From a virus (lineage: Duplodnaviria > Heunggongvirae > Uroviricota > Caudoviricetes): DNA of 64,000 bases. The stretch lies in IMG/VR virus record IMGVR_UViG_3300033463_000001, positions 211,298 to 275,297 of that record. One strand, 5' to 3'. Shown piece after piece: positions 2,476 through 58,250 of the stretch. Position 1 is the first letter of the stretch; each line of letters starts with the position of its first letter. Under the pieces are notes generated by a model. It was not told the DNA's origin. It worked only from the letters and a program-made list of their open reading frames with translations, and made no database searches. The position numbers and the translations under genes were made by a program.

Positions 2476-2479
2476 ATCA

Positions 2480-8500: not shown

Positions 8501-9878
8501 CGTTTGTGAGGTACGGGATAACAGCATTCCTTACATGAATATTAGCGGTGAGTTGCTTCCGGTGAAGACTGAGAGTGTGAAATTTGTCAATAACGGTGGC
8601 ATCCTGAATGAACGTACCATATTGTCTTATGTTGAGGTACCGATGTACTTTGACGGATTCACTGTTGGTAACGTAACATATAGCGGTGATGTAAAAATAT
8701 CCAATCCTTGCTTCGAAGACTTCGAGGAGATTATTGACCTCTACGACCTGCCTAGTGAGCGCCCGACAACGAAGAAGATATACCTATATTACACAAAGGA
8801 TGGTGAGAAATACCCTGTTGACATTTACAACCTTGAATCCGGCGTTACTGCTGATATGATTCACGTGGATATCGAGATGGATACGGATATGGGCGGCGAT
8901 GACCCGTCTGTTCTCATGTACGCTGTTAGCGAATACTTGGAACCAGGACAAAACTATTCAAACTACTGGGTACTGGACGACGTTGACAACTACCAGTCTT
9001 TCGCCATGTCTAATAACCCATACTACCAAATAGGTTGGACTAGACTCAAGGAAAACGACCCGCGCGCATTGACGCTTAACTCGATTAAGACCATCATAAC
9101 AGGTAATAACCCACACAGTGCACGTATTCCTTATGATGATGGTTCCGAGTACTTATATCGCTTCGTGAAACTGTTTAAATACCCGTACATGCATCGTGAC
9201 TTCGATGAGCGTTGTTTCCAGGATGTAGAGGCGGCGTATGATGAGATATACATGTATGGATTTGAGAATATCTTTACTGATAAGTACTCAACGTACATCA
9301 ATCCGACTCCGATTGCAGAATATCGTTACGAGGACATGTCCGGCGCAACTCCGGATGATGACGGGAAACTTGTGCGCTATATCGGCGAGACGCGTACGCA
9401 AGAACCTAAATATATCAAAGGTGCATTCTATCGCTATGCCAAGAGTAGTGATACGTGGAATTTCGAGGAACAGGAGAAGGTTTATATCAACGGCATCTAC
9501 GACACAAAGTGCCATGCCTTTGCAAATGTTAAACTGAGTGACGGTTCCGTATTAAAGTGGGGTGATGTTGGTAACCAGTTAACTGATATCGCAGCGTACG
9601 GAGACACTCCGTTCCCGAAACTGTATGACGACGACACAGATTCTAACCCGAACCGTATCATCAACACGAAGTATGTTGATATTGAGTTCCACAACGACAG
9701 TGCTGACATAGAATTGGTGAAGTACTATGATGTTGCATTGGTACACTATATTCAACAGTTGCTCCCGTCAACTATTATTGCGTCGATACGTTTCGGTCGT
9801 TACCGTGATTGTGGTATCGGATGTATGATGGTACCGTACATTGTTCCTATACATGAGGACGATTTCTTGGTGCGCTAA
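5544..9878 (+). CDS. giant virion/tail protein (1444 aa)
   Basis: 4.3 kb uninterrupted ORF, start coupled to the upstream stop (TAATGG). Size and position immediately before the fibre modules suggest a tail/baseplate component. Confidence 0.6.
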   Translation: MATKSYTQYSKRTKHQVAGKSVIFETDLTTLQDMSSVENDSVPVYSSGNIVITKSNEQHYQRSHKTAGYLENQHGGTIWNGEILNELPVDANSCSATQILKRDYNKLQSFAYYGSCMELFRASLNHIVEAFPGEIFVEAFPSGSGIGIPHRDSTANGTPLSGTTSDGLVADCMCSNPFNIDIFATSVSKDLTLSNKLKYFANGGCRNYNVIRPDGSKYAIEEWNVINRSDKDCFIPGDIVCEVEIGAAVNDLGISTMEINKDFEVGLGHQDGNFMRVLIIKTDSGYGIFTNEKYLGYHIRPNDACINEAYSKLSIFEQYLLNRETLPMYKATFEVIYETSTGYERGLEYFIFPTDISGYNLDITGNQYDVYAGSLANLGVLYDELYSDNLYRSMTHEAISNMDFTKIDENSETEYTLGVEKMKKVIRVLGRCFDEIKVYIDGIENVHTISYSNAAGTSDYSLSDELENDGWDIASVVALQKKNYYEHTGETFTEESTMPINDTDFIDKIIYYIGADNHQFEHGKFYRCTQDTSRIQITNTRSGSIDFVDGGIMKTLRTCLSKLTPAWKQYLPLTLKRSSGKWRLTMSNGTELMNADTIDEFKFGITQDMIVDTPITRYVFNITMFLWEESVPYAAGEKVYTDKEPFDVCTNLIVDSKGETHTLYREFSEVDAEYKPYGNESDAKFLTCCGGEVPANGQQLMTEIVKFIHYNGKKYILDCNDELRELVNGEVVTHPIVNGCIELRGETIPVQSEKRILHTVTSYFDNKTWTASEINYEFQKRLKLNSRAILRKKGTANAIESLLALWGMKSDRFVSNSSNTDLVSDYSIRETSIYTDAIKDTYEPTRELPTMDWYNYIKTYTYDTPNARMNIYDAYRGLPVTYVQYYIDPTDVSGEAYTTNAYDYKNTKRKEAFRMVYPYFDNTAEYDGGMYYQMYGGWLKKTPYCFGDKNLILCGETFTETLRNIHLVDNIEALKGLRYNSLYDGFVCEVRDNSIPYMNISGELLPVKTESVKFVNNGGILNERTILSYVEVPMYFDGFTVGNVTYSGDVKISNPCFEDFEEIIDLYDLPSERPTTKKIYLYYTKDGEKYPVDIYNLESGVTADMIHVDIEMDTDMGGDDPSVLMYAVSEYLEPGQNYSNYWVLDDVDNYQSFAMSNNPYYQIGWTRLKENDPRALTLNSIKTIITGNNPHSARIPYDDGSEYLYRFVKLFKYPYMHRDFDERCFQDVEAAYDEIYMYGFENIFTDKYSTYINPTPIAEYRYEDMSGATPDDDGKLVRYIGETRTQEPKYIKGAFYRYAKSSDTWNFEEQEKVYINGIYDTKCHAFANVKLSDGSVLKWGDVGNQLTDIAAYGDTPFPKLYDDDTDSNPNRIINTKYVDIEFHNDSADIELVKYYDVALVHYIQQLLPSTIIASIRFGRYRDCGIGCMMVPYIVPIHEDDFLVR

Positions 9879-9892
9879 TTATGTTGTGAAAG

Positions 9893-9901
9893 TATTTATT
9901 G
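9893..9901 (+). promoter_or_regulatory. TATTTATTG motif 13 nt upstream of ATG (recurring, 5 copies)
   Basis: Exact 9-mer shared with 14456, 32838, 33409 and 52065, always 13-19 nt upstream of a + strand structural gene start; consensus (G/A)TATTTATTGnTAG. Confidence 0.4.
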
Positions 9902-9914
9902 ATAAACGTTAGAA

Positions 9915-10631
9915 ATGGATACAATAGCGGATACACTACGTGGAACGATTTTGTCACTCAAGCAAATTAGTGATAGGCTGAAAAAGCTCGCTAATGCGCT
10001 TGGTGATATGCCATCTGGTACCACAATATACACATCAATCGAAGAGATAAATAATACAGTTTATGAAAGTGCCGCCTCTATTATCGAGTACCTTCAAGGC
10101 GAAGATAGTGGCGCTACAAACACTGCCATTTTGGAGGCTATTGGTGCAATTGAATTTGATAAGTCGGGATTAGCTACAGATATTCAAGCCAATGAAATAA
10201 TTAGCGACGTCAGTGGCCTACCAAGTGAATTACACACAGTATTGGAAACCGTGTCCGGTATAACTGGTTATGCCATACAGGGTAGTGGTACTCCTGAAGA
10301 TGTGAACCTCACTGTTGTAGATGACAAAATAGGAGACATTGCAGAAATTGTAAGTGCGATTACTGGTGGTGAGATTGATTGTACAATACCAGGTAACTAC
10401 GCTCTCGAAACAACACTTGTTAATGCTCGCGATTCAATCCTAAATGAAGTTAGTGGCGTAAGTCGCGAAATAGGTACAGACACAGACCAGGTTACAGTGC
10501 ATGAAAAACTAGATTGGCTCGTCGACTCAACGGGGGAATGCACATTTGTAAGAAACAACGATGGAACCGATACATGGACGCTTATTCTAGATAGGAGTGC
10601 GTCGATTAACAATAACACACTAAACGTATAG
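9915..10631 (+). CDS. fibre-like module protein, paralog family (copy 1 of 3)
   Basis: 238 aa. Shares block FDKxGLATDxQANEIIxDVSGLPxEL...VLExVSGITGYAxQGSGxxEDVNLTVVDxKIGD with ORFs 14483..15277 and 17871..18548, each preceding a DGR target gene. Confidence 0.6.
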   Translation: MDTIADTLRGTILSLKQISDRLKKLANALGDMPSGTTIYTSIEEINNTVYESAASIIEYLQGEDSGATNTAILEAIGAIEFDKSGLATDIQANEIISDVSGLPSELHTVLETVSGITGYAIQGSGTPEDVNLTVVDDKIGDIAEIVSAITGGEIDCTIPGNYALETTLVNARDSILNEVSGVSREIGTDTDQVTVHEKLDWLVDSTGECTFVRNNDGTDTWTLILDRSASINNNTLNV

Positions 10632-10639
10632 TCTAAGAT

Positions 10640-11944
10640 ATGGATGTAACAAAAATACAAAAAGGTAATACAACGTACAATATTTCTGTACAAGGTGTTG
10701 CAACACAAGTAGAACGTGCTGAGGCTGCTGCAAATCAAGCTACAGTTGCTGCCGTTGCTGCTCAACAGGCCGTGACATCAACACACGAGCTTGTCGGTGG
10801 TGAATATGTTCCTAGCTTCGACGCTACAGTAACTTATCATGTTGGTAATTTAGTATTCCATCGTAATAACGACGATGGTCATGTGTTCAGGTGTATTGCA
10901 GAGAGAGCTCCAGGGCCTTGGGTTGGTTCAACGGATGCTTCTTTCGTTCAGACATCTTGCTACGGTGAGATAATGGATATGCGTGGCCACGATATAAATA
11001 TTGAGAGTGTAACTGTTAAACTAAAACCGGACATGGTTAAAGAGTCTCTTGGTGGAGCACCTGCGCTTTCTGGTATCACTGTATTCTTAAAAACAGGAGT
11101 CGGTGATGAAGGCTCGACTTATTCCGGAGTAACAGATGAGAATGCAGAATATACTTTCTCAAACATCCCTTGGGGAACTCAGTATACAATTTTCACAGAA
11201 ACTGAAGCCGTATCTGGTTATGCAGACCCACGGCCGAAGTCTGTTCAATCTGCGAACATGTACCACCGAAACGTAACGCTTTTCTATAGGTTGCAAATGA
11301 CGGGATGGTATGTGATTACAAAGAGTAGTGTTGAACACATTGATATCGCAGACTGGGATACATCAAACAACGACCAGGCAGAGTTACTTGGTTATCAAAA
11401 TAGTCAGTTTAGGTTTGCTATTAAGATTAAAGGACGCGCAACTCAACAGGGCGCATGGTCTAATCCAGGAAACGTAGAAATTAATATTCCGAGCTTATAC
11501 TATGCAAGTACTAACTCTGCCACGTTCATGACAGATGCCTACCTTGCAGATGTTGAGTATCCGGCAGGTGGTGAAGTTTATAGCCGTCTCGCTTTCAACA
11601 CAAAGGCGATTCTTGATAATAAAGGTACACAAGGTGTTCAAGCTGCTACGTTCTGCCATAACGCTACAGTAGAAATCGGAGGTGAAACATATCATGGATG
11701 CTTGCCGCTGCTTGCTATGCTCAACCTGTTTACTAATGGTAGTGCGGAGCGTACTGAGTTCTATAACACCATGAACGAATACCTGACGTGGCTTGGTGGT
11801 ACGCCACTGTTTCTTCGCAGTGGCACCTGGTGGTCCAGCGAGCAGTACAATAACGAGCAAGCTTGGTACATCTACCATGGTAGTCTGAGCAACCACAACA
11901 AGACTAACACGAACAACGTTGCGGTGCCGTTTTACGACCTTTAA
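10640..11944 (+). CDS. DGR target protein 1 (putative receptor-binding protein) with C-terminal variable region
   Basis: 434 aa. The last ~42 codons (...TWWSSEQYNNEQAWYIYHGSLSNHNKTNTNNVAVPFYDL) match TR1 except at TR adenines. N-terminus is paralogous to the other two targets. Confidence 0.8.
   Translation: MDVTKIQKGNTTYNISVQGVATQVERAEAAANQATVAAVAAQQAVTSTHELVGGEYVPSFDATVTYHVGNLVFHRNNDDGHVFRCIAERAPGPWVGSTDASFVQTSCYGEIMDMRGHDINIESVTVKLKPDMVKESLGGAPALSGITVFLKTGVGDEGSTYSGVTDENAEYTFSNIPWGTQYTIFTETEAVSGYADPRPKSVQSANMYHRNVTLFYRLQMTGWYVITKSSVEHIDIADWDTSNNDQAELLGYQNSQFRFAIKIKGRATQQGAWSNPGNVEINIPSLYYASTNSATFMTDAYLADVEYPAGGEVYSRLAFNTKAILDNKGTQGVQAATFCHNATVEIGGETYHGCLPLLAMLNLFTNGSAERTEFYNTMNEYLTWLGGTPLFLRSGTWWSSEQYNNEQAWYIYHGSLSNHNKTNTNNVAVPFYDL
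11818..11943 (+). repeat. DGR variable region VR1
   Basis: ~126 nt nearly identical to 12513-12638. There are 6 mismatches, all A in the TR copy (A->C,G,T,C,G,C in VR), plus one G/C at the extreme 3' end. Confidence 0.85.
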
Positions 11945-11979
11945 TTTTTAGTTTAAAGCTGCTTGCAAGGCATATTGTA

Positions 11980-12450
11980 ATGCCGCCGCACAGCTATACA
12001 AAGAAATACAAAAAAAGACAATTCATAAAAACATCACACGCAGTGGCGCGGATAACTAAAGTTCAGATTTTTAACTCCGTTCTTGGCCTATTAAAGTACC
12101 TAGAACGTACAAAAGACCAGTTTCCGAAAGGCGCAGGACGCGAATATAAGGAACGGATATCACATATCGTGCTATACGAGCTGATTCCGTTTTTGAAAGA
12201 CGCGTACGAAAGCAAAGGAGACCAGAAACGGAGGTTGGATGCCCTGAAGTCGTTTAAGAACAGTTTGGATATTCTGAGCTATGTTTTGAAACTATGTTCG
12301 GATTTCCACTGGATTTCAGTTACACACATGGCGAAAATATCTCTTATGATAGATGATATTGAAACACAATGTAATAGCTGGATTAAACGAACGAAGGCAT
12401 CCGGGTCAGAGTCCGAAGACTTACTGGTCGACGGAGAGTGCCCTAAATAA
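11980..12450 (+). CDS. avd: accessory variability determinant-like small basic helical protein
   Basis: 156 aa ORF between target and TR/RT, the canonical Avd position. Basic and helix-rich, with an FPKGAGREYKERI segment resembling four-helix-bundle Avd family proteins. Confidence 0.55.
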   Translation: MPPHSYTKKYKKRQFIKTSHAVARITKVQIFNSVLGLLKYLERTKDQFPKGAGREYKERISHIVLYELIPFLKDAYESKGDQKRRLDALKSFKNSLDILSYVLKLCSDFHWISVTHMAKISLMIDDIETQCNSWIKRTKASGSESEDLLVDGECPK

Positions 12451-12512
12451 AGGTGGCAACATACTCACCCCCAGCAATGGAAGAGTTATATCGATAATTG
12501 TTGCAAAAACGA
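12451..12512 (+). other. conserved TR leader element (copy 1)
   Basis: AGGTGGCAACATACTCACCCCCAGCAATGG...AGTTATATCGATA immediately 5' of TR1. Homologous leaders precede TR3 (16988-17059) and TR2 (20588-20651). Confidence 0.5.
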
Positions 12513-12638
12513 CAGTGGCAACTGGTGGTCCAGCGAGCAGTACAATAACGAACAAGCTTGGTACATCAACAATGGTAGTCTGAACAACAACAACAAGACT
12601 AACACGAACAACGTTGCGGTGCCGTTTTACGAGCTTTA
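12513..12638 (+). repeat. DGR template region TR1
   Basis: Non-coding copy of VR1, rich in AAC (Asn) codons in the VR frame. It ends 3 nt before the RT start codon. Confidence 0.85.
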
Positions 12639-12641
12639 TTC

Positions 12642-13877
12642 ATGGAAAATAACGTAGTGGATATTGAAGAACTTTGGCTGGCAGAACAAGACTGTGCCAA
12701 GAGAAAAAGGAGTAGCACTGCGTGTGATGAATTTATGATAAACGAAGCCGCCAATGTGGCTAAGCTTTGGAAGGAACTAAACGACGGAACGTATGAGATA
12801 GGTTATAGCACAGCGTTTGTTGTAACAAGGCCTAAATTGCGAGAGGTGTTTGCGGCTGATTTTAGGGATAGGATTGCGCACCACTATATAATCAATAGGA
12901 CAATAAACCTGTTTGAAGCCCACTTTATTGAAGACAGCTACAATTGTCGTAAAGGAAAGGGCACGACATACGCAATTAAACGCATAGACGAACAGATACG
13001 CCAGATTTCCAATAACTTCACAACTGATTGTTGGATTCTGAAGTGTGATATCAAGAATTTTTTTATGAGCATCAACAAGAATATCCTTTGGAGAATGCTC
13101 GAAAAGTTCTTGATTGAAAACTACCAAGGAGACGATAAAGCATTTGTAATTAGCCTGACAAAGCAGATTGTAATGCATCGTCCGGAATTGAAATGTATCA
13201 GGCACGGTACGAATGACTTATGGGATGCGCTTGACACAGGGAAAAGTCTGTTTAACAGTCTACCGTACAAAGGTCTTGCAATAGGCAACCTGACCAGTCA
13301 GATATTTGCAAACTTCTACCTCTCGTATTTCGATAAGTGGATAATCAGCAAACCAGGACTTGGGTACGGAAGATATGTGGACGACTTCATCGTATTAGCA
13401 AAGACAAAAGAGGAGTTGTTATCTCTAATACACGAAATTAGAGCATACCTCAAGGATAATCTTGAACTCCAACTACACCCGAAGAAGTTCTACCTGCAGC
13501 ACTACACGAAGGGTGTGAAGTTCACAGGGTACGTCTGGAAGATGAATCGCATCTACACAAGCAACCGGACTGTAAACAATGCTATTATGATGGTTAGAGA
13601 ATGGAACATGCATCCAGGATTGCCTGGTATAGAGCGATACATACAGAGATATAACTCATTTATGGGTTTCTTGCTATACACGTGTTCGTATAATATACGC
13701 AAGCGAATATGGGAGATGCTTGATGCAAAAATAAAGGAATTGATATATATTGATAAAGATTACAAAGCCGTCCATATCAAGGACAGATTCAACCGAATAA
13801 ACCTAAGAGCAAATGCAATACGGAATCATAAACATAGAAAGCGAAAACTTCGCTCAGTCAAAAAAAATAGCCGATAA
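12642..13877 (+). CDS. DGR-type reverse transcriptase 1
   Basis: 411 aa; RT motifs including IGNLTSQIFANFYL (DGR-specific I/LGxxxSQ instead of QGxxxSP) and YGRYVDDFIV (YxDD catalytic box). Confidence 0.9.
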   Translation: MENNVVDIEELWLAEQDCAKRKRSSTACDEFMINEAANVAKLWKELNDGTYEIGYSTAFVVTRPKLREVFAADFRDRIAHHYIINRTINLFEAHFIEDSYNCRKGKGTTYAIKRIDEQIRQISNNFTTDCWILKCDIKNFFMSINKNILWRMLEKFLIENYQGDDKAFVISLTKQIVMHRPELKCIRHGTNDLWDALDTGKSLFNSLPYKGLAIGNLTSQIFANFYLSYFDKWIISKPGLGYGRYVDDFIVLAKTKEELLSLIHEIRAYLKDNLELQLHPKKFYLQHYTKGVKFTGYVWKMNRIYTSNRTVNNAIMMVREWNMHPGLPGIERYIQRYNSFMGFLLYTCSYNIRKRIWEMLDAKIKELIYIDKDYKAVHIKDRFNRINLRANAIRNHKHRKRKLRSVKKNSR

Positions 13878-14376
13878 CCTATATTTTATCCGCGTAAAAT
13901 TAGGCGAAGACGGTAGTGGTTTTACACAAGCAATTGAGGCCGTCGTAACGCACGAACCAACAGAAGAAGATTTTGCCGGCTTACTGAATAGCTATACCGA
14001 TGGTGTTAAGCGTCATAAGATTGACGACGTGGATACATACGATAAGTCAGATAATGTGAACGGTTTCATTATAAATGGCGAGCATGCTTGGTTTGATAAG
14101 ACGACGCGCATGGGAATTATCAATTTGTTAGAATGTCAACAAAAGACCGGTGAGACATTCACAACTATAGACATCAACGATAAGCTATATGAACTAACAA
14201 TCAGTAGAGGGCTTGAGATGATGCAACAATTGGAGGTGTACGCCGGACAGTGTTTCTTGCGCACGGCGATACACAAGAAGAATATACAAGCACTTGATTC
14301 CGTTAGTGACATTGTAGCATATGACATAACGGATGGCTATCCGGAGCAACTGGAGTTCACACTGGCAGCACTCTAA
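13813..14376 (+). CDS. DGR-module-associated ~187 aa protein, paralog family (copy 1 of 3)
   Basis: Shares NxFxINGxxAWxDKxTRxGxxNLL...LEVYAGQC...TxGYPExLEF with 17302..17868 and 21941..22501, each located at the 3' end of a module. Overlaps the RT 3' end by 65 nt in another frame. Confidence 0.55.
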   Translation: MQYGIINIESENFAQSKKIADNLYFIRVKLGEDGSGFTQAIEAVVTHEPTEEDFAGLLNSYTDGVKRHKIDDVDTYDKSDNVNGFIINGEHAWFDKTTRMGIINLLECQQKTGETFTTIDINDKLYELTISRGLEMMQQLEVYAGQCFLRTAIHKKNIQALDSVSDIVAYDITDGYPEQLEFTLAAL

Positions 14377-14390
14377 CTGACTGGATTTGG

Positions 14391-14424
14391 GCGAGAACAC
14401 GATGCGTTGTTCTCGCTTTCTTTG
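14391..14424. terminator. Rho-independent terminator
   Basis: GCGAGAACA-cgatgcg-TGTTCTCGC hairpin followed by TTTCTTTG. Confidence 0.6.
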
Positions 14425-14455
14425 TCTATGTCCGTGGACAAACGCAGCAATTTGA

Positions 14456-14464
14456 TATTTATTG
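14456..14464 (+). promoter_or_regulatory. TATTTATTG motif (copy 2)
   Basis: GATATTTATTGTTAG, 19 nt upstream of ATG 14483. Confidence 0.4.
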
Positions 14465-14482
14465 TTAGATGTAGATACAATT

Positions 14483-15277
14483 ATGACAATAACAGAGTTA
14501 TTTAGAAAAGCAATCATGAGTCTCTCCGGGATTTCTCAAGTCCTCAAAGAGCTCTATAACTGGTCACACGAGAGTGTTGCCACAAAGGAGTCTGTTCAAC
14601 AGGAGCTTACCAACAAGGCCACCAAGCAGAATGTGACGGATGCACAATCCGCTATTATTGGTGCAATCAACAGCAAACCTGTTACACCGGCTACTGACCT
14701 AACACCGGTTACACAGGTCTTGGGTAGCTATAACTCCAGCAAAGGTACTATTCAAGACCAAATCGGCAATATTGTATTCGATAAGAATGGACTCGCTACT
14801 GATGCGCAGGCTAATGAAATTATCGGAGATGTCAGTGGGCTACCTGGTGAGTTGAATGCCGTTTTGGAAAGTGTTTCTGGTATTACCGGATATGCTTACC
14901 AAGGAAGTGGGTCTTCAGAGGATGTTAATCTCACAGTAGTAGACAATAAGATTGGTGACGTACAGGAGGTAATCGACACAATTAACGGCGGAACGATGGA
15001 TATTAATATTCCATCGGATTACGTTCGCGACACAACGGTTACAAGTGCCAAAACTGAGATTCTTAGCGCTATTACTGCTGTTAGTGGCTCGGTTGGTGTT
15101 GACAATAGCGGCGTGACTGTACACGAAAAAGTTGATACAATAGAAGCAATGGTGCGATACCTGTTCAATGGGTGTAGCATTGTAGAGAATAGTGACGATG
15201 TCGGAACAGGAAATCAAGGATATACAGTAATACTTGACCAGACAGCATCGATTAACGACGGAATACTTACATTATAA
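14483..15277 (+). CDS. fibre-like module protein, paralog family (copy 2 of 3)
   Basis: ORF track begins at TTG 14462; first ATG is 14483 (MTITELFRK). Strong identity to 9915..10631 over FDKNGLATDAQANEIIGDVSGLPGEL...VHEKVD. Confidence 0.6.
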   Translation: MTITELFRKAIMSLSGISQVLKELYNWSHESVATKESVQQELTNKATKQNVTDAQSAIIGAINSKPVTPATDLTPVTQVLGSYNSSKGTIQDQIGNIVFDKNGLATDAQANEIIGDVSGLPGELNAVLESVSGITGYAYQGSGSSEDVNLTVVDNKIGDVQEVIDTINGGTMDINIPSDYVRDTTVTSAKTEILSAITAVSGSVGVDNSGVTVHEKVDTIEAMVRYLFNGCSIVENSDDVGTGNQGYTVILDQTASINDGILTL

Positions 15278-15278
15278 C

Positions 15279-16841
15279 ATGAGCGCGAATAAAATTACAA
15301 AATTTCAGAAGGGTAACGTTATATACGACCTGTTTGCTCCCGGATTGGATGAAGCAGTAGCAAGTGCTGCTACCGCACAGAATAACGCCGAGTATGCTGC
15401 CAACACGGCTTCGTACGCTGCGGCTATGACATACCATATGCTTGGACTTGAGAATGTTCCTTTGTGGAACCAGTCCGATGCCTATGCAAAGAATGACATT
15501 GTTCGTAAGACGGTTGTTTCTGGGGGCGTGTCCAGTGACCATATCTTCCGTGCCAACAACGAAATTGCTGCAGGAACGGCGTGGAATGATGACCTATGGA
15601 CGGATACATCTGTGTGGGGTGAGATTCAAAACATGAAGGTTGGTGCTTTGTCTGTTGAGACGGTGCGTGTTACAGGATATATGTTCCAGGATGGCTCACT
15701 TATACCGGTTCCGGAAGGAGAGGCATTGAATGTTGTCTATAACGAGACCAACCACTTTTATTCCTTTAAGGCAGGCCTATGTGAGTTCTCAGTACCGCGT
15801 GGTACGGAATATGGCATCATTTATAGCCCGATTAATGGTTACAATACTCCGTCTGCTGCCTACTATAACGCTAATATGTCAACGCGTAGTATCACAGCTA
15901 CATATCACTATCGTCAAAGTGGTTGGTTTGGTGTTAAGACTGTAACTACAACGGTTAACAACACATCAAGTGTAAGCATCGAAGAAGTTCCAATGTCAGA
16001 GTGGAACCAGGCTGATAATGATGCATCAATAGGTATTAAGTTCTACGGACCTCTTGGTCACTACTTCCTGCCGAAAAACTGGAAAGACTATAGAACAACA
16101 GGTGTTCAATTCTCTTCTCTAAATATTGAGTTCTCTACCACTACTGCGGCAAACATGGAAGCATTGGTTATTGACCGGTATTTCCGCATTGGAACAGAGC
16201 TAACCTATCAAAAGAGTGGTGGTGTTGCAACGTGCATCATTACAAAGGCACAGGCAGACACTTGGTATCAAGGCAACGACGTTACCGATACCGACGGTGA
16301 CTTAATTGTCAGCGGACTTTCTTCTGAGGATAAAACAGCGTATCAAGCAGTTATCACGGCTCGTTATGACTATGGATTGAGTCCTGCGGTTGGTGGACAT
16401 ACGTTAAGTTCTAACAATGCAACACTGACGAATGACTGGGATGCCTTTGATGCAACGCAACAACTTGTTGAGATGTGGCAGGCATTTGCCAGCTTTAACC
16501 TTCAATCATTAACTGCGTGCGCTGCAGTGTGGGCACGTGGTAAATCGCTAACCATTGGAGAGTCAACGTATTACGGAAACTTACCTACTGCCGGTATGGT
16601 TCTCAGCCTTAGTGGAAACAGAAGCCAAATTCAACAGCATCTCAAGACAATCGGCGTCGACGCAGCCTATGCTGAAGCGTTTACCATCGGTACGGCGTCG
16701 TGGGGTTCCGGCAGCGCCGGTAACACCTGGTCGTCCTCACAGTTTAATGCTAGCATCGCGTGGTGCTTGAATACGTCTGGGGCGTTGCTCAGCCACAACA
16801 AGAGCTACAGTTACTCGGCGGTGGCCGTGTTCGACCTATAA
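15279..16841 (+). CDS. DGR target protein 3 with C-terminal variable region
   Basis: ATG at 15279 (MSANKITKFQKGN), directly after the upstream stop; N-terminus paralogous to 10640 (MDVTKIQKGN). The last ~43 codons match the orphan TR3 except at TR adenines. Confidence 0.8.
   Translation: MSANKITKFQKGNVIYDLFAPGLDEAVASAATAQNNAEYAANTASYAAAMTYHMLGLENVPLWNQSDAYAKNDIVRKTVVSGGVSSDHIFRANNEIAAGTAWNDDLWTDTSVWGEIQNMKVGALSVETVRVTGYMFQDGSLIPVPEGEALNVVYNETNHFYSFKAGLCEFSVPRGTEYGIIYSPINGYNTPSAAYYNANMSTRSITATYHYRQSGWFGVKTVTTTVNNTSSVSIEEVPMSEWNQADNDASIGIKFYGPLGHYFLPKNWKDYRTTGVQFSSLNIEFSTTTAANMEALVIDRYFRIGTELTYQKSGGVATCIITKAQADTWYQGNDVTDTDGDLIVSGLSSEDKTAYQAVITARYDYGLSPAVGGHTLSSNNATLTNDWDAFDATQQLVEMWQAFASFNLQSLTACAAVWARGKSLTIGESTYYGNLPTAGMVLSLSGNRSQIQQHLKTIGVDAAYAEAFTIGTASWGSGSAGNTWSSSQFNASIAWCLNTSGALLSHNKSYSYSAVAVFDL
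16709..16838 (+). repeat. DGR variable region VR3
   Basis: 130 nt versus 17060-17189 at a constant offset of 351 nt. About 20 mismatches, all at TR adenines, plus one terminal G/C. Confidence 0.85.
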
Positions 16842-16987
16842 ATTTAGGTTCGCAAGTTACAGCATTGGGTCATTGCAGACACAATGCGCTATATAATACA
16901 TAAGTGAACATTGACATATACAGCAAGAGGTTAAATTCTCGACGCAATGTAAGCCAGCATGCTGATACTTACGGGTTAGGCAGCGCG

Positions 16988-17059
16988 CATTAATCATAGG
17001 TGGCCTACCACTTTCCCCCTGCTTGCAGGATAAGTTATATCGATAGAGTAGGCGTATAA
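16988..17059 (+). other. conserved TR leader element (copy for orphan TR3)
   Basis: AGGTGGCCTACCACTTTCCCCCTGCTTGCAGG...AGTTATATCGATAGAG, homologous to the leader 5' of TR1. Confidence 0.5.
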
Positions 17060-17189
17060 CGGCAACGCCGGTAACACCTGGTCGTCCTCACAGTATAATG
17101 CTAACAACGCGTGGTACTTGAATACGTCTGGGGCGTTGAACAACAACAACAAGAACAACAGTTACTCGGCGGTGGCCGTGTTCGAGCTA
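17060..17189 (+). repeat. DGR template region TR3 (orphan: no adjacent avd or RT)
   Basis: Intergenic, AAC-rich (aacaacaacaacaagaacaac) copy of VR3. Confidence 0.8.
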
Positions 17190-17192
17190 GGA

Positions 17193-17204
17193 ATGAAATG
17201 CTAA
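17193..17204 (+). pseudogene. vestigial RT start (ATG AAA TGC TAA) at the position where RT genes begin after TR1 and TR2
   Basis: In modules 1 and 3 an RT ATG lies 3-5 nt after the TR end. Here an ATG at the same offset is followed by a stop after 3 codons. Confidence 0.4.
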
Positions 17205-17301
17205 TAGCAGATTTAATTACATTGGCGTGCCGGAGACGGCTCGTTTAGGAAGGTCGAGAATACCTCTTTGCTGTATTTATTGTAAGACAAAAACATGTTA
17301 T

Positions 17302-17868
17302 ATGGAATATATAATTGAGAGATATGCGTCGGACGATTTCCGTACGTCAGAAAAGATTGGAAATAGGTACATCATACGCACAAAAATTGAAGACTTGCCG
17401 GAAAGTGAGTCTGTTCGCTGCGTCGAAAGTATCATTGACCATAGTCCGGCACAAGCAGATTATGATGCACAGGTAGCAAGCTACATAGGAGATGTGCAAC
17501 AGGAGAAACTGTCATGCATACGGCGCTATGATGTGTCGGATAACGTCAATATCTTCTACATTGATGAGCACGCAACATGGCTTGACAAAGATACTCGCGT
17601 CGGTCTGGACAACCTCATTAAGAAACAAAAGGAGGCCGGTGCTACAGAAACGACCTTGTGGTTAGCTGGTGTCAGCTTTGTTATCGAGATTGACCATGCA
17701 ATAGACCTTCTCAGACAACTTGAGATTTACGCAGGTCAATGCTACAACAAGACAGAGGAACATAAGGCAGCAGTTCTTGCAACTACAACAATAGCTGGCG
17801 TTGAGAACTACGACTACACAACAGGTTATCCGGAGCCACTGCACTTTACGATTAGTAATAATGAATAA
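17302..17868 (+). CDS. DGR-module-associated ~188 aa protein, paralog (copy 2 of 3)
   Basis: ORF track starts at 17227. Paralog alignment and ATG 17302 (MEYIIERYASDDF) give 188 aa. Conserved NIFYIDEHATWLDKDTRVGLDNL...LEIYAGQCYN...TTGYPEPLHF. Confidence 0.55.
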   Translation: MEYIIERYASDDFRTSEKIGNRYIIRTKIEDLPESESVRCVESIIDHSPAQADYDAQVASYIGDVQQEKLSCIRRYDVSDNVNIFYIDEHATWLDKDTRVGLDNLIKKQKEAGATETTLWLAGVSFVIEIDHAIDLLRQLEIYAGQCYNKTEEHKAAVLATTTIAGVENYDYTTGYPEPLHFTISNNE

Positions 17869-17870
17869 CC

Positions 17871-18548
17871 ATGCCAGAGTCTATTAGCCAATTGTTTAAC
17901 AAGACCATACTCAGTCTAACAGGGATATCTACATTCCTGAGTAATATCTACGCCTGGCTTACAAGCAACGTTGCTACGAAGAGTGACGTTTCTACAGCCA
18001 CGCAGAATGGTGCTACAAAGACAGACCTTAGCACATCAACCAATACCATTGTAACTGCTATCACGAATAAGCCAGTGACACAGATTGGACCTATAATGGA
18101 TGTGCTGGGTGACTTCAATGCAGGTAATGGTACAATACAAGACCAGATTGCAGACCTTGGAACTGCTGTTGGGCAGATTGAGTTTGATAAGACCGGGTTG
18201 GCAACAGAGAGTGGAACAACGAGCGCCGTTACGGCAGCGGCCGGGAGTGTTATCAATGCGCTACCAAAAGACTACGCACAGAGAGGGGAGAATAGTGGTG
18301 CAACTAATAGTGCAATTCTAAACGCTTTGAGCGATGATAGTGGAAATACTGTTGTTGATATTCTTACCGACGAAACAAGTGGCCTATCAGCCATAAGTAA
18401 TGCAGTTTCAGGACTGCCTGAAGTAATGAAAAATATGTATGCGGCACACTTTGAACAAAACGAAGATGGTGAGGATACGTATACAATGGTAATGCCGTTA
18501 ACAGCCATAGTTAGTGAAACCGGCGAAGCAATCACAATAAACATTTAA
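17871..18548 (+). CDS. fibre-like module protein, paralog family (copy 3 of 3, diverged)
   Basis: 225 aa; retains the IQDQI...FDKTGLATE block and the same position in the module. Confidence 0.5.
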   Translation: MPESISQLFNKTILSLTGISTFLSNIYAWLTSNVATKSDVSTATQNGATKTDLSTSTNTIVTAITNKPVTQIGPIMDVLGDFNAGNGTIQDQIADLGTAVGQIEFDKTGLATESGTTSAVTAAAGSVINALPKDYAQRGENSGATNSAILNALSDDSGNTVVDILTDETSGLSAISNAVSGLPEVMKNMYAAHFEQNEDGEDTYTMVMPLTAIVSETGEAITINI

Positions 18549-18556
18549 TACAATAT

Positions 18557-20128
18557 ATGTCAACACCTACAAAAATAGCTACTAGATTAAAATCAGCAAT
18601 AACCGGTGAAGAGTTCTTTATTGGAACTGTTGGTACTCAAGAAAAGGTTTCTGTATTATTGTCTGCACCTTCCAGTGTGGATTGGACACAATATTCCGTA
18701 GTAGTACAAAATATATCACAAACTGGTTCCCAGACTCTCAATTTAACATCTGAGGCATCTGGTGCAACAACCGTCGGTGTATGTGCTTTCAATATGCCAA
18801 TGGGCGTTATATACGAAGTGCAATTACCGACAATTACGGGATACGTATCTCCAATTAACCAGCGATTCTCAGCAACATCAGCAATGAGACAACTTATTCA
18901 TGAATACACAGCTGAAGGTGAGAAATTCGAACAAGTAACAATACTTGCATCCTTTGCATCTGCAGGAGGTACTGTTGCGTTATTGGAAAATATGACTGTT
19001 ACAGCGCTGTGCACCGATGGAACATCTTATTCAGGTATGTTTAATGCTAGTGGAATGTGTACTATTACCAATATCCCATATGGTAAAACATACACAATTC
19101 AATACCCGGATGTAATTAGTAGTGACGGGTCTATTCCATTTCATCATGACCGCAATAATGAACAGTTTACCGCCGGAGAACCATCAAGGATGCTTAATGT
19201 TACCTATTATGAGGGTATCATTGGTATTCATGGTGTTGACAGGTACGGAAACCTATTAAGTCTAGAAGAAATTGAATCTGGCATCACAAACGGAACGATA
19301 GTTGCTTCCGACATTATAGCAGGATATTACAATGATTCAAGGCTATCTCAGTCAACACGTGGTGATGGTTCAGGTATAGGTAATGCTGTTGTATGGAGTG
19401 TGTGGGATAATAAAATGCAAGGTTCCTGGATGAACCCGAATGGAAGCACTGTTAATGGCGTACCATTGAATAGCTCAGAAGGATATCACCTTGATAAATC
19501 GCGCTGTGCTGGAAAATATTATACGTTGCTAATCTCAGACTACGCAACAAGTAATAGCTATGCTTCAATCATTAAAGACTGTACCGCGCGAACTATAAGA
19601 GCACAAAAACTTTATGCTGTATATAACGATATTGTATATCGCCAAGTAGAATATAGTGACAATCAATGGAAATCTGTAACAGAGACCCCTGTTATTGTTT
19701 ATACTCATGATTCTATTACAAACCTTAACGGTGTAACAGGCGTGACTTTCTATAGCACTGCGCAAGGCGCAACTGATGAAGATAGTAGCGATATCGCATT
19801 TACTGCTGATGTTTTGAACTCTGCCGCAACAAAGAATGGTTTTACGGGTTCATACGCACAGATGAAAGGAATGGCAGACAACTGGGCTAATAACACAACC
19901 AATCCAGGTGCTTATACGGCGTACAGACTCTACAAAGCTTTAGGCATTGAGACTAAGATTACATCTGCTTCCAGCAACGCGACGTCTCACAACATCCGTA
20001 ACGGCTACTGGTGGACGTCTTGTCAGGCCAGTTCGACTTATGGAGTCTTACTGCTTAGTGGCTCCTTCGACATCGGCAACAAGTACTACGGTAGCTCTGT
20101 GTTGGTTTTGTTCGACCCTTTTGAATAA
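18557..20128 (+). CDS. DGR target protein 2 with C-terminal variable region
   Basis: 523 aa. C-terminus ...GYWWTSCQASSTYGVLLLSGSFDIGNKYYGSSVLVLFDPFE corresponds to TR2 (GNWWTSCQNSSTNGVKLNSGSFNNNNKNNSNSVLVLFEP). Confidence 0.8.
   Translation: MSTPTKIATRLKSAITGEEFFIGTVGTQEKVSVLLSAPSSVDWTQYSVVVQNISQTGSQTLNLTSEASGATTVGVCAFNMPMGVIYEVQLPTITGYVSPINQRFSATSAMRQLIHEYTAEGEKFEQVTILASFASAGGTVALLENMTVTALCTDGTSYSGMFNASGMCTITNIPYGKTYTIQYPDVISSDGSIPFHHDRNNEQFTAGEPSRMLNVTYYEGIIGIHGVDRYGNLLSLEEIESGITNGTIVASDIIAGYYNDSRLSQSTRGDGSGIGNAVVWSVWDNKMQGSWMNPNGSTVNGVPLNSSEGYHLDKSRCAGKYYTLLISDYATSNSYASIIKDCTARTIRAQKLYAVYNDIVYRQVEYSDNQWKSVTETPVIVYTHDSITNLNGVTGVTFYSTAQGATDEDSSDIAFTADVLNSAATKNGFTGSYAQMKGMADNWANNTTNPGAYTAYRLYKALGIETKITSASSNATSHNIRNGYWWTSCQASSTYGVLLLSGSFDIGNKYYGSSVLVLFDPFE
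20003..20119 (+). repeat. DGR variable region VR2
   Basis: 117 nt versus 20652-20768. About 20 mismatches, all at TR adenines, plus a terminal G/C. Confidence 0.85.
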
Positions 20129-20169
20129 TTAAAAGCGCTAGGACATTCCTGTCCAGCGCATAAACAGCA

Positions 20170-20583
20170 ATGGGAAAAATTGTAGATAAATACACAGACG
20201 GTAGGGAGATACCTCTATATAAAGCAACGGAAACATTGCTTTATGACGTTGATAATTTGATTAATTTTTTACAGAAAGATAGGAAGCATACTCTTGGACA
20301 ACACATGCTTCTCCTTGTTTTGGATATGCTGGATTGCGTGGCGGTAGCATACGATTTTCCAGAAAGAAAAGTTGAACAATTAAAGTTGTATATTTCGAAG
20401 TATAACAACTTGGCAACAATTCTTAAAATGTGTGAAATAAAGGGTTATCTAATGAACAATAATAAGAACTATTATGTTGAGATGATTAAACCTTTAGGAA
20501 ACGCATATAAACAAGCTAAAGGTTGGTTAGTATCCGCAAACAAAGAAGCCGGAGTCTGTATGGATAATACAGAGAGCGCGTAA
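20170..20583 (+). CDS. avd: accessory variability determinant-like protein
   Basis: 137 aa helical ORF between target 2 and TR2. The segment KDRKHTLGQHMLLLVLDML resembles the PRKHG region of known Avd proteins. Confidence 0.55.
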   Translation: MGKIVDKYTDGREIPLYKATETLLYDVDNLINFLQKDRKHTLGQHMLLLVLDMLDCVAVAYDFPERKVEQLKLYISKYNNLATILKMCEIKGYLMNNNKNYYVEMIKPLGNAYKQAKGWLVSANKEAGVCMDNTESA

Positions 20584-20587
20584 AATT

Positions 20588-20651
20588 TAGGGTGGCTATC
20601 TACTTTCTCCAGAAATGGGAAGTTAAGAATAAGATAATGATAGCGACATAC
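20588..20651 (+). other. conserved TR leader element (copy 3)
   Basis: AGGGTGGCTATCTACTTTCTCCAGAAATGGGAAGTTAAGAATAAGATAATGATAG; same architecture as the TR1 and TR3 leaders. Confidence 0.45.
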
Positions 20652-20768
20652 GGCAACTGGTGGACGTCTTGTCAGAACAGTTCGACTAATGGAGTCAAAC
20701 TGAATAGTGGCTCCTTCAACAACAACAACAAGAACAACAGTAACTCTGTGTTGGTTTTGTTCGAGCCT
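20652..20768 (+). repeat. DGR template region TR2
   Basis: AAC-rich copy of VR2 ending 4 nt before the RT2 ATG. The ORF-track 'protein' 20592..20780 is just its translation. Confidence 0.85.
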
Positions 20769-20772
20769 AAAT

Positions 20773-21996
20773 ATGAGTGAGTGGTGTACAATAGAAGAAG
20801 TATATGCTGCCTATCTTGACTGTAAAAAGCACAAAACAAGGTCTAGTTCATACGCAGAATTTGCTGCTAACGAAGCAATAAATTTGTATGAATTATGGCT
20901 TGATTTGAATAATCATACCTATAAAATTGGTTTAAGTGACGCATTTTGTGTTACACGGCCAAAAGTTAGGGAAGTATTCGCTGCTAGGTTTCGCGACCGT
21001 ATAGTTCACCATTTGGTGATTATGCGATTGTTGCCTATATTTGAACAACATTTTATTGAAGATACGTATAATTGCCGAAAAGGGAAGGGTACGGATTACG
21101 GAATTAATCGTGTATTGAATTTTACTAAAAACCACCCAAATGGTTGGATATTAAAGTATGATATAAGTTGTTTTTTCATGAGTATTAACAAAACTTTGTT
21201 AAACTCAATGCTGAAAACATTTATTTGCGATAATTATAGTAGGGATGACAAAGACGAGATTTTATCTTTGGTAGAAATGATTGTCATGCATCGCCCTGAA
21301 TTGCTTTGTATAAGGAAAGGTGATTTAAGCTTATGGAATCAATTACAAAAAGGAAAATCTTTATTTCGCAGCGACGGAAATCACGGCCTTGCAATTGGCA
21401 ACCTTACAAGCCAGATATTTGCGAATTTCTACATGTCGCAAATAGATAAATGGCTAGCAAGTATTGATGGTGTAGAATATGGAAGGTATGTTGATGATGC
21501 AATTTTAGTATCTGACGATAAAAATTTATTACTATCTATACTCCCCAAACTGCGTGAGCGATTAAGCGTTGAGCTTGATTTAGAACTACATAAAAAGAAA
21601 ATATACATACAACCAGTCAGGCATGGCGTTTCGTTTTTAGGGAGCGTAATTAAGAATGGGCGTTTATATGCAGGAAATCATACAGTTACAAATGCATTTA
21701 ATATAACGAAAGAGTTTGCGTGTAGGTTAGATAAGGAGAGTTGCGTTGAAAAATTTGCACAGCGATACAATTCTTATATGGGATATCTAATACATCGTAA
21801 AACATACGCAATCCGATGGAATCTATGGAATAATGTAGATGAAGAAACAAAAAAGTTTGTATACTTAACAAAACGCATGGGTTTAATGCGTGTAAGGGAT
21901 GTGTACAAAGAGAAAACTAAGCTAAAAAGTCAATATAAACATGATAAAAGAAACATTAGCAATAAACGACTGGGAGGAGTTGTCAAAGGCTTTTAA
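20773..21996 (+). CDS. DGR-type reverse transcriptase 2
   Basis: Start moved to ATG 20773 (MSEWCTIEEV), downstream of TR2. Motifs IGNLTSQIFANFYM and YGRYVDDAILV. About 50% identical to RT1 by eye. Confidence 0.9.
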   Translation: MSEWCTIEEVYAAYLDCKKHKTRSSSYAEFAANEAINLYELWLDLNNHTYKIGLSDAFCVTRPKVREVFAARFRDRIVHHLVIMRLLPIFEQHFIEDTYNCRKGKGTDYGINRVLNFTKNHPNGWILKYDISCFFMSINKTLLNSMLKTFICDNYSRDDKDEILSLVEMIVMHRPELLCIRKGDLSLWNQLQKGKSLFRSDGNHGLAIGNLTSQIFANFYMSQIDKWLASIDGVEYGRYVDDAILVSDDKNLLLSILPKLRERLSVELDLELHKKKIYIQPVRHGVSFLGSVIKNGRLYAGNHTVTNAFNITKEFACRLDKESCVEKFAQRYNSYMGYLIHRKTYAIRWNLWNNVDEETKKFVYLTKRMGLMRVRDVYKEKTKLKSQYKHDKRNISNKRLGGVVKGF

Positions 21997-22501
21997 GGTT
22001 GGTAATAAGCAATTCTATTACTTACGCATGTTCAAAAAAGACCTGCCTGGTGATTTGTGTGTTTGCTACACCGAATTAGTTGACCACCAACCAACACAAG
22101 AAGAAAAGGATGAGTTGTATGCAGCTTATCTTGCCGGAATGAAAAATATGGTAATAGACGAGATTGTCGCATATGATTCTTCTAGTGCCGTAAACAAATT
22201 CTATATCAACGGTATTGAAGCGTGGCTGGATAAACAGACTCGTGTTGGATTAGTGAACCTTCTGGAATCGCAAAAGAAAACAGAACACACTCGCACAACA
22301 CTTTGGTTTAATGGAACACCAATCGAGTTAGATATTGAAACAGCGCTCAATATGTTGTATGAGCTTGAGGTATACGCTGGCTTATGTTATAACCAAACGG
22401 AATTACATAAAGCCAATGTGTTAGCTTTAGTAAATATTGATGACGTCGAAAACTATGGCTACACAACAGGATATCCTGAATACCTCGAATTTGAGGTGTG
22501 A
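21941..22501 (+). CDS. DGR-module-associated ~186 aa protein, paralog (copy 3 of 3)
   Basis: KFYINGIEAWLDKQTRVGLVNLL...LEVYAGLCYN...TTGYPEYLEF. Confidence 0.55.
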   Translation: MIKETLAINDWEELSKAFKVGNKQFYYLRMFKKDLPGDLCVCYTELVDHQPTQEEKDELYAAYLAGMKNMVIDEIVAYDSSSAVNKFYINGIEAWLDKQTRVGLVNLLESQKKTEHTRTTLWFNGTPIELDIETALNMLYELEVYAGLCYNQTELHKANVLALVNIDDVENYGYTTGYPEYLEFEV

Positions 22502-22583
22502 GTATTATAGAAACGGCCTTGTTATTAAATTCATAGGCGGAACGCTAGTAGCAGAATGGAATCGAAATGATTCGGAATAATAA

Positions 22584-22618
22584 AAACCGGTACCTCAATC
22601 GAGATGCCGGTTTTCTTG
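22584..22618. terminator. bidirectional Rho-independent terminator between convergent genes
   Basis: AACCGGTA-cctcaatcgaga-TGCCGGTT hairpin, A-run on the 5' side and TTTTCTTGTTG on the 3' side. Confidence 0.6.
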
Positions 22619-22621
22619 TTG

Positions 22622-23008
22622 TTAGTACACAACCTCTTCGCAGTTGTATCCCTGTTTCCTAATCCAGTCAGCAACGAGATGCCTATGACAGAAGTCGCCT
22701 GGTTTCTCGTAGCACAAGAGCGTTAATTCATCAAGCGCTACGCCATCGGAACCGTAGAATTCATTCAAATCGAACAGGACGTTGAGTATATCCAATTTCG
22801 ATAACACCTCATTGTTAAACCTGCGTGTATACAGTTCCGTGTCTCCTTTTTCAACTCCACCATTTTTGTAAGCATTCAAGATGCTATATGTCGGTGCTAG
22901 CTTCTTATATTCAGGTTTTCCTAGTGCTGTGTACCACACAGGTGCTTTCGCTGCGATAGAGACGGGATATTTGATTTGTTTTAACTTTGCAAAATAACTG
23001 GTTTTCAT
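22622..23008 (-). CDS. DUF488-family protein
   Basis: 128 aa with the conserved ...EKPGDFCHRHLVADWI... block typical of DUF488. Last gene of the NAD operon. Confidence 0.5.
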   Translation of the reverse strand: MKTSYFAKLKQIKYPVSIAAKAPVWYTALGKPEYKKLAPTYSILNAYKNGGVEKGDTELYTRRFNNEVLSKLDILNVLFDLNEFYGSDGVALDELTLLCYEKPGDFCHRHLVADWIRKQGYNCEEVVY

Positions 23009-23754: not shown

Positions 23755-23756
23755 AG

Positions 23757-24287: not shown

Positions 24288-24288
24288 A

Positions 24289-25446: not shown

Positions 25447-25711
25447 GTAAATAAAGTTGTTTAAAGTTTTCGTTATATTCTGCAATCTCCTTTTCGAGAC
25501 GTGCAATGCGTTCATCGCTGTATCCGGATATATCGTATACCTGACGGTCACCAATCACTTCGTCAACTGGCATGTAGAGCACTTTAACGGTATCATCAAA
25601 CTCAGAAGATATATGCTTGATGACATGTTCTACAAACTCAGGAACGTCGCCACGGTTAACGCCACCGATGTAAATCTGGATAACGATAATGCGTTTTTCT
25701 TTATCAGTCAT
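25427..25711 (-). CDS. hypothetical protein (94 aa)
   Basis: Compact ORF coupled to neighbours inside the operon; acidic C-terminus; no motif recognised. Confidence 0.45.
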   Translation of the reverse strand: MTDKEKRIIVIQIYIGGVNRGDVPEFVEHVIKHISSEFDDTVKVLYMPVDEVIGDRQVYDISGYSDERIARLEKEIAEYNENFKQLYLHDSKPS

Positions 25712-53238: not shown

Positions 53239-53246
53239 TACAATCC

Positions 53247-58241: not shown

Positions 58242-58250
58242 TAGCAAGTT

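Follow-up and report, generated by a model that had tools for sequence, protein, structure and literature searches.

Diversity-generating retroelements (DGRs) usually combine one reverse transcriptase (RT) with one template repeat (TR) and one or a few variable repeats (VRs). In the prototype system, that of phage BPP-1, the TR is followed by a 140-nt spacer with the essential RNA elements, namely the priming adenosine, an Avd-binding stem-loop and a stop duplex (bioRxiv 10.1101/2023.10.23.563531). Multiple DGRs are reported for ~10% of DGR-bearing complete genomes (PMC5758913) and for 278 of 618 DGR-carrying Bacteroides isolates (bioRxiv 10.1101/2024.11.15.621889). The DGR of Stenotrophomonas sp. 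SKA14 has a pair of TRs and six merged VRs (PMC6642488), Quimbyvirus has one RT and two VRs (PMC8008677), and two-target phage DGRs have been described (PMC8008677, PMC10743442). Here we analyze a 64,000-nt stretch of an IMG/VR virus record (IMGVR_UViG_3300033463_000001, positions 211,298 to 275,297; the window hereafter), in which a DGR with three private templates and two RT complexes of different sublineages is embedded in tandem tail fiber genes.

With a probability of roughly 85%, window positions 9915-22501 represent three tandem tail fiber cassettes with a multi-template DGR, carried by a phage of ~327 kb and working by the mechanism proposed below. The system is a genuine, active DGR of a known kind, and its architecture is uncommon: it combines three templates with two RT complexes, and one of the templates is used in trans. 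All three cassettes lie on the plus strand and follow the order fiber-like protein (F), target protein with a VR at its C-terminus (T), DGR core and DUF4376 chaperone (S). The original prediction assigned one gene order to all three modules, which is correct for cassettes 1 and 3, where the core is complete (avd, a 60-nt leader, TR and RT), but not for cassette 2 (14483-17868), whose core consists of a leader and a TR only. The window proteins are found on two contigs, one from JGI (327,393 bp) and one from ENA (ERZ27257207 k141_3338118; 327,291 bp), which represent a jumbo phage genome. The ENA contig (L001) was compared with the window together with two contigs ~97% identical to it: a 34-kb contig from JGI 3300041717 (L002) and a 12.9-kb Logan contig from SRR24912566 (L084).

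The template and variable repeats are as follows:

11818..11943, + strand: VR1, with 6 mismatches at adenines and 1 G/C mismatch to TR1
12513..12638, + strand: TR1, with 10 in-frame AAC codons, allowing ~10^20 protein variants
16709..16838, + strand: VR of cassette 2, with 11 mismatches at adenines and 1 G/C mismatch to its TR
17060..17189, + strand: TR of cassette 2 (an orphan without its own RT or avd), from repeat comparison
20001..20119, + strand: VR of cassette 3, with 16 mismatches at adenines and 1 G/C mismatch to its TR
20650..20768, + strand: TR of cassette 3, from repeat comparison

The three TR/VR pairs lie where they had been predicted, and each VR has a private template: with any change at A allowed, a scan of both strands of the 64-kb window found exactly one VR per TR, and the TRs are mutually distinct. 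Adenines of the TR are the site of 33 out of 36 mismatches; pooled over the pairs, differences affect 33 of 115 A sites but 3 of the 260 sites with another base (Fisher p = 9.6e-16), which confirms the adenine-mutagenesis signature on alignment. The mismatch count first given for pair 1 (6) was accurate, while "about 20 each" for the other two overstated the actual 11 and 16. Likewise, the adenine specificity was correctly noted, but the G/C exception, counted as one, is present in every pair, giving three in total.

This exception is a difference between TR ...CGAGC and VR ...CGACC (VR positions 11938, 16835 and 20116). Across the clade of related RTs (L003-L162), the TR/VR homology ends in the same way, with a conserved block, a 1-2-nt difference, 4-5 identical nucleotides and then no similarity, and the discriminating 3′ motif is GAG or GAA in the TR versus GAC, GCT or GCC in the VR. 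We propose from these alignments that the single CGAGC/CGACC difference is a discriminator at a fixed 3′ boundary, resembling the IMH*/IMH pair (initiation of mutagenic homing). The VRs stop 1-9 nt short of the target stop codons, and ~10^17 to 10^20 variants are possible at each of the three fiber tips. Inverted repeats follow the VRs, and folding with z-scores revealed no hairpin of this type after TR1 or the cassette-3 TR:

11957..11995, + strand: weak inverted repeat after VR1 (DNA fold -9 kcal/mol, z -1.15)
16862..16887, + strand: inverted repeat after the cassette-2 VR (75-nt stretch, DNA fold -10.2 kcal/mol, z -2.1)
20135..20159, + strand: inverted repeat after the cassette-3 VR (DNA fold -11.3 kcal/mol, z -3.0)

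VR1 and the cassette-2 VR are being diversified at present. Over the 21,236 nt compared, L001 and the window differ by 25 substitutions, all within VR1 (11) and the cassette-2 VR (14) and all at positions with an adenine in the TR; the TRs themselves do not differ between the two. The VR heterogeneity at adenine sites anticipated by the original prediction is therefore borne out for two cassettes, since 25 out of 25 differences between near-identical assemblies fall at TR adenines. In L002 and L084 the VRs are 11-20% different from those of the window, compared with ~2-3% elsewhere in the alignment; all three VRs differ among these relatives, and the cassette-3 VR differs at 22 of 119 positions in L002. 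The relatives also display in-frame length changes within the AAC-repeat tract of the VR, a known behavior of DGRs (PMC5758913).

Templates vary as well. The TRs of cassettes 2 and 3 carry substitutions relative to L002 and L084, 8 out of 8 of them at adenines and several polarized from A to N in L002, and they also differ by one gained AAC unit. L084 shows no change in TR1 or in the leaders. These changes hint at occasional mutagenic homing into the template or VR-to-TR conversion.

The proteins of the DGR core are encoded as follows:

11980..12450, + strand: avd1, 156 aa (PHROG 3206 'Avd protein of DGR' 1.9e-10; NCBIfam DivGenRetAVD 1e-8; Pfam bAvd 4.6e-5)
12642..13877, + strand: RT1, DGR-type RT, 411 aa (RVT_1 3e-20; PHROG 1423 1e-78; PDB 8ub7_A 1.3e-27)
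20170..20583, + strand: avd3, 137 aa (PHROG 3206 3e-6; NCBIfam DivGenRetAVD 0.0039)
20773..21996, + strand: RT3, DGR-type RT, 407 aa (RVT_1 2e-15; PHROG 1423 9e-76; 57% to the RT of L005)

Sequence evidence supports the placement of both RT1 and RT3 in the DGR clade, as the original prediction had it. Both carry IGNLTSQ and YVDD and match PHROG 1423, and the top solved structure for RT1 is the Bordetella phage DGR reverse transcriptase bRT (8ub7_A, E 1.3e-27), with group II intron and retron RTs among the remaining matches at 2e-7 or weaker. Both proteins score far under the NCBIfam cut-offs for the group II, retron and Drt families. Among deposited phages, Bacteroides phages F2, F4 and Bacuni_F1 have the RTs closest to RT1 (41-45% identity). 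The start codons of both RTs lie 3-4 nt after the TR end; for RT3 this is, by the gene call, the ATG at 20773 and not the GTG at 20707.

Upstream of each TR lies a short structured leader RNA:

12449..12508, + strand: leader type A, cassette 1 (covariance model 74 bits, E 2e-15)
16996..17057, + strand: leader type A, cassette 2, with no adjacent avd or RT (covariance model 68 bits, E 7e-14)
20588..20648, + strand: leader type B, cassette 3 (covariance model 63 bits, E 1e-12)

A first covariance model, built from five leader copies, gave exactly three matches in the 64-kb window, each directly 5′ of a TR. The second-round model, with which 100 sources (0.99 Mb) were scanned, gave 24 matches, every one on the RT strand just upstream of a TR. 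In the alignment of these 24 hits, which was fitted to the model, 97.9% of the cells are paired and compensatory double changes occur in 13 out of 14 pairs. None of 500 shuffles attained the observed covariation score, percentage of paired cells or number of doubly changed cells, and sliding the partners by 1-3 columns lowered the pairing to 28-51%. The fold comprises an outer 6-bp helix, a 4-bp helix (ACUN/NAGU) and a short hairpin, often GNRA-capped, with a conserved single-stranded segment of 12-15 nt on the 3′ side. All three leaders of the array share this fold and a conserved 5′ block AGGUGGC. No Rfam match to the leader was obtained, and a permissive cmscan of 9000-23500 gave one chance-level hit elsewhere (E 0.88). 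The leader thus appears to be an uncatalogued conserved structured RNA.

Downstream of the TRs, no conserved stem-loop comparable to that of the BPP-1 spacer was established: TR1 is followed by a weak one and the cassette-3 TR by none. About 35 nt past the cassette-2 TR, at 17225-17244, there is a clear GNRA-capped hairpin (CGUGCCG-GAGA-CGGCUCG), which may serve as a terminator or as a Bordetella-type stem-loop for Avd binding. By-eye inspection for pairing between the leader internal loop and the TR 3′ end gave nothing convincing. We infer that the leader is a ribonucleoprotein (RNP) assembly or priming element of this DGR clade. A bolder proposal, to which we give somewhat less than even odds, is that the cis-acting RNA of the clade is a self-contained 5′ leader stem-loop plus TR rather than a downstream spacer, and that leader-TR units are portable, with the loop type as the address to the RT complex.

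Cassette 2 contains no open reading frame for avd or RT. It is diversified yet lacks both, and therefore an RT complex acts on its template in trans. In the ~100 nt after its TR, a MAFFT alignment had suggested the pseudogenized 5′ end of an RT; local alignment against avd1, avd3, RT1 and RT3 with shuffles gave z values of -1.1 to 0.7, and this candidate was rejected.

Two subtypes of the system can be distinguished. Subtype A comprises RT1, Avd1 and the leader loop UAUAUCGAUA and groups with L003 (RT 58%); subtype B comprises RT3, Avd3 and the leader loop UAAGAAUAAGAUAAU and groups with L005 (RT 57%). In the 3′ internal loop of the cassette-2 leader, 10 out of 12 positions match cassette 1 and 6 out of 15 match cassette 3, with a 3-nt length difference. 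Because this loop is of type A, and because VR1 and the cassette-2 VR changed together, we lean towards Avd1/RT1 as the complex that serves the cassette-2 template. The switching of three receptor-binding proteins, supposed at first to be independent, is thus probably not fully so: cassette 2 must borrow an RT and an Avd, most likely those of cassette 1.

According to the mechanism we propose, an Avd-RT complex would bind each leader-TR RNA, and the RT would copy the TR into cDNA with misincorporation opposite adenines. The cDNA would then replace the cognate VR up to the fixed 3′ boundary marked by CGAGC/CGACC. The cassette-2 template would be copied in trans, most probably by Avd1/RT1, given that its leader is of the cassette-1 type. 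The data show the adenine specificity, the current diversification of VR1 and of the cassette-2 VR, the structure of the leader RNA and the protein families; in this scheme, we infer which RT serves cassette 2, what role the leader has, and any effect on the host range.

The DGR core is inserted into what appear to be repeated sets of fiber genes:

9915..10631, + strand: F1, fiber-like protein, 238 aa (open reading frame; 43% to F2)
10640..11944, + strand: T1, DGR target and putative receptor-binding protein, 434 aa
13813..14376, + strand: S1, DUF4376 tail fiber chaperone homolog, 187 aa (DUF4376 0.0078)
14483..15277, + strand: F2, fiber-like protein, 264 aa (gene call; 43-44% to F1 and F3)
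15279..16841, + strand: T2, cassette-2 DGR target, 520 aa (gene call; 28% to T1; VR at the 3′ end)
17302..17868, + strand: S2, DUF4376 chaperone homolog, 188 aa (gene call; 36-44% to S1 and S3)
17871..18548, + strand: F3, fiber-like protein, 225 aa (paralog comparison)
18557..20128, + strand: T3, cassette-3 DGR target, 523 aa (VR near the 3′ end)
21941..22501, + strand: S3, DUF4376 chaperone homolog, 186 aa

F1 had no match in Pfam or PHROG. The predicted structure of T1 resembles the Bacteroides pilus-tip adhesin 4EPS, whose fold class (Type V pilin-like binding folds) is the one reported for the group-1 variable proteins of Bacteroides DGRs (bioRxiv 10.1101/2024.11.15.621889). Pfam, PHROG and PDB sequence searches gave no significant C-lectin match for T1 or T3. 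Among 19 S homologs, 11 match PF14301 (DUF4376; best 1.4e-8), while S1 falls below the cut-off (0.0078) and S3 has no hit; the predicted S structure, obtained with database homologs, resembles prefoldin and the Pam3 fiber chaperone. The DUF4376 family consists of tail fiber chaperones (PMC10579305, PMC7882524), and in many related DGRs an S homolog lies directly 3′ of the RT. S is accordingly best described as a predicted tail fiber chaperone of this family. Given the identities of F, T and S, each cassette would be a set of fiber genes with its chaperone, the DGR core lying between the tip protein and the chaperone; the receptor-binding module of the original prediction agrees with this family assignment and with the 4EPS-like model of T1. 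Identities between paralogs are 43% for F1/F2, 44% for F2/F3 (N-terminal region), 28% for T1/T2, 36-44% among S1, S2 and S3, and 48-50% for RT1/RT3.

The trans action on cassette 2 could be explained differently. That its TR depends on Avd3/RT3, or on the two complexes interchangeably, would agree with the fold and AGGUGGC block common to all three leaders, with the CGAGC 3′ motif common to the three TRs, and with the distinct cassette-2 VR of L002, which lacks RT1. We consider this rather unlikely, since the internal loop of the cassette-2 leader is of type A, the loop type follows the RT and Avd sublineage in other phages, and changes between the isogenic assemblies are present in VR1 and the cassette-2 VR but absent from the cassette-3 VR. 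Moreover, RT3 of L002 is frameshifted, so the VR state of L002 may predate both losses. Another view, that cassette 2 is a dead relic whose TR was orphaned by RT loss and whose VR differences date from past activity, fits the missing avd and RT and the fact that core loss does occur, as in a 1359-bp deletion in L002. It is nevertheless very improbable: 14 cassette-2 VR differences, all at TR adenines, separate assemblies identical at 21,211 other positions, and the leader of this cassette is intact (68 bits), with 0 differences in 75 nt from L084, its ~97% relative. Copying in trans, probably by Avd1/RT1, remains our preferred reading of cassette 2.

The array as a whole had been described as a tandem triplication. 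A recent triplication in this phage, followed by divergence and the loss of one RT, would account for the F-T-(core)-S order common to the cassettes and for four paralogous protein sets; we regard it as unlikely. RT1 and RT3 are each closer to the RTs of other phages (58% to that of L003 and 57% to that of L005) than to each other (48-50%). Avd1 and Avd3 have no similarity detectable by BLASTP, each matching a different foreign Avd, and no avd or RT remnant was found in cassette 2. Furthermore, a complete T-avd-TR-RT-S unit occurs singly in other phages; L003, for example, is a small podovirus-like contig with one such unit and with SU10-type capsid and P22-type portal genes nearby. The affinities of the RTs and Avds to other phages contradict the triplication if it was meant as a recent one, and the comparisons favor an old duplication or a stepwise acquisition of whole cassettes. 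A mis-joining or collapse of repeats in a metagenome contig, or an annotation artifact, must also be considered, as metagenome assemblies are known to break at DGR variable regions (PMC8008677). The probability of this is negligible: the same cassette order is found in four independent assemblies (JGI, ENA, Logan and a second JGI sample), the paralogs, at 28-48% identity, are too divergent for mis-joining, and no TR-to-TR cross-match with at most 25 non-A mismatches exists.

Several observations weigh against the reading of the array given here. Between L001 and the window, the cassette-3 VR has 0 differences, as does the rest of the 21,236 nt outside the two changed VRs, which bears on whether RT3 is active now. 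Each VR sequence is a consensus assembled from a mixed population, and individual haplotypes may therefore be chimeric. The choice of RT1 over RT3 for cassette 2 draws on just two observations, the leader similarity and the joint change of VR1 and the cassette-2 VR. The one DGR RNP with a solved structure has its priming and Avd-binding elements downstream of the TR (bioRxiv 10.1101/2023.10.23.563531), on the other side from our leader. The NCBIfam DivGenRetAVD scores of avd1 and avd3 and the Pfam bAvd score of avd1 are under the curated cut-offs. As for a C-type-lectin fold of the targets, no Mtd, TvpA or TaqVP structure was among the top 60 structural matches of the target model.

Among relatives, the array is unstable. 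The deletion in L002 is clean and, in window coordinates (12403-13761), removes the 3′ end of avd1, leader 1, TR1 and almost the whole of RT1. In the same contig RT3 (window 20773-21996) is frameshifted by the loss of 1 nt from an A-run at around codon 19. L002 may thus have no intact RT in the array, though all three of its VRs differ from those of the window. An IS200/IS605 element with a Y1 transposase and TnpB/OrfB (L002:5850-7387) is inserted directly after TTAC at window position 17220/17221, ~30 nt past the end of the cassette-2 TR (17189), between this TR and S2. The array is therefore in flux, through loss of a TR with its RT, insertion of a mobile element beside a TR and frameshift of an RT.

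Directly after the array, on the minus strand of the window (22622-25554), lie genes for DUF488-N3a, cytidylyltransferase-like, NUDIX and nicotinate phosphoribosyltransferase (NAPRTase family) proteins. We take this four-gene run to resemble a phage NAD+ salvage/reconstitution cluster, a kind presumably linked to counter-defense. A second fiber-like block, at 52093-61375 on the plus strand, encodes a 1664-aa protein without a family match and a 656-aa tail fiber protein with a C-terminal Peptidase_S74 intramolecular chaperone domain, and is free of any DGR signature. The phage seems to carry at least four kinds of fiber. Unusual phage cargo includes a protein with SPFH/Band 7 and flotillin domains (31244-32752, minus strand) and a protein with two CHB_HEX_C / Fn3-associated domains (33434-34798, plus strand). 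With ARAGORN, neither tRNA nor tmRNA genes were detected in the 64-kb window, despite the jumbo-sized genome.

To place the array among known DGRs, we compared it with phage and metagenome loci. A megablast search of 50,697 phage records with this region gave no match. With an RT alignment, 80 IMG/VR loci were recovered (RT1 alone found none), and among these, with RTs 40-52% identical, none of the 80 has a second RT or a second genuine TR in the 10 kb on either side. Among the metagenome loci of at least 8 kb in the matches listed (n = 29), a single one, L101, has two RTs and two tandem TR/VR pairs; the matches listed include no close relative of the phage, the best RT identity being 49-50%. 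The arrangement is hence unusual, as the original prediction stated and as the absence of a second RT from all 80 IMG/VR loci indicates, but it is not unique, since L101 also has two RTs. We found no literature description of a phage with tandem fiber cassettes, private TRs and an active RT-less TR, which, as the coverage was partial, is weak evidence.

A template used without its own RT and Avd is a natural experiment on the cis requirements of a DGR template. It suggests that these amount to the 60-nt structured leader, the TR and at most ~100 nt downstream. Relative to the TR, the leader lies opposite to the functional RNA elements of the one DGR whose structure has been solved. Should leader-TR units indeed be portable, one Avd-RT complex could be multiplexed over several private templates, with cassette 2 as a natural example. 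The layout of the array also points to a way of performing orthogonal DGR mutagenesis in multiplex, with template units that are short and portable. For the jumbo phage, whose host is probably a Bacteroidota species, three hypervariable fiber tips with their own chaperones could greatly widen receptor recognition or stabilize it.

Overall, the array is similar to the BPP-1 prototype (mtd-avd-TR-brt) in the order of target with VR, avd, TR and RT on one strand, in the adenine-specific TR-to-VR differences, and in the position of the VR at the C-terminus of a tail fiber receptor-binding protein. Further shared features are a 3′ discriminator resembling IMH/IMH* and the inverted repeat that follows the VR, and bRT itself is the best match of RT1 among solved structures. 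In contrast to BPP-1, which has one TR, one VR and one RT, the phage described here has three TR/VR pairs and two RTs. The functional RNA of BPP-1 is the spacer downstream of the TR, whereas here a conserved structured leader of 60 nt lies upstream and the RT start codon follows 3-4 nt past the TR; the BPP-1 target is Mtd-like, while the target here, T1, is by its model pilus-tip-like (4EPS). With domain group 1 of the Bacteroides DGR variable proteins the array would share, judging by the T1 model, the Type V pilin-like binding folds for which 4EPS is the reference. Bacteroides phages F2, F4 and Bacuni_F1, which have the closest RTs among deposited phages, contain a single RT1-matching place per record, as opposed to two RTs, three cassettes and one RT-less TR in the ~327-kb phage described here. 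L101 (Ga0247609_10003376, an unrelated 16-kb metagenome contig, positions 2177-11206) comes near in layout, with two tandem target-VR/TR/RT cassettes and a DUF4376 homolog after the first RT, but it has only two cassettes and no RT-less TR, and its RTs match RT1 at 44% and 27%. Finally, the multi-target and multi-TR DGRs of SKA14, Quimbyvirus and Treponema denticola resemble the present system in that one RT complex acts on more than one target. Most of these feed several VRs from one TR, whereas here each VR has a private TR and leader within repeated fiber cassettes, and one TR has no RT of its own yet is presently active.

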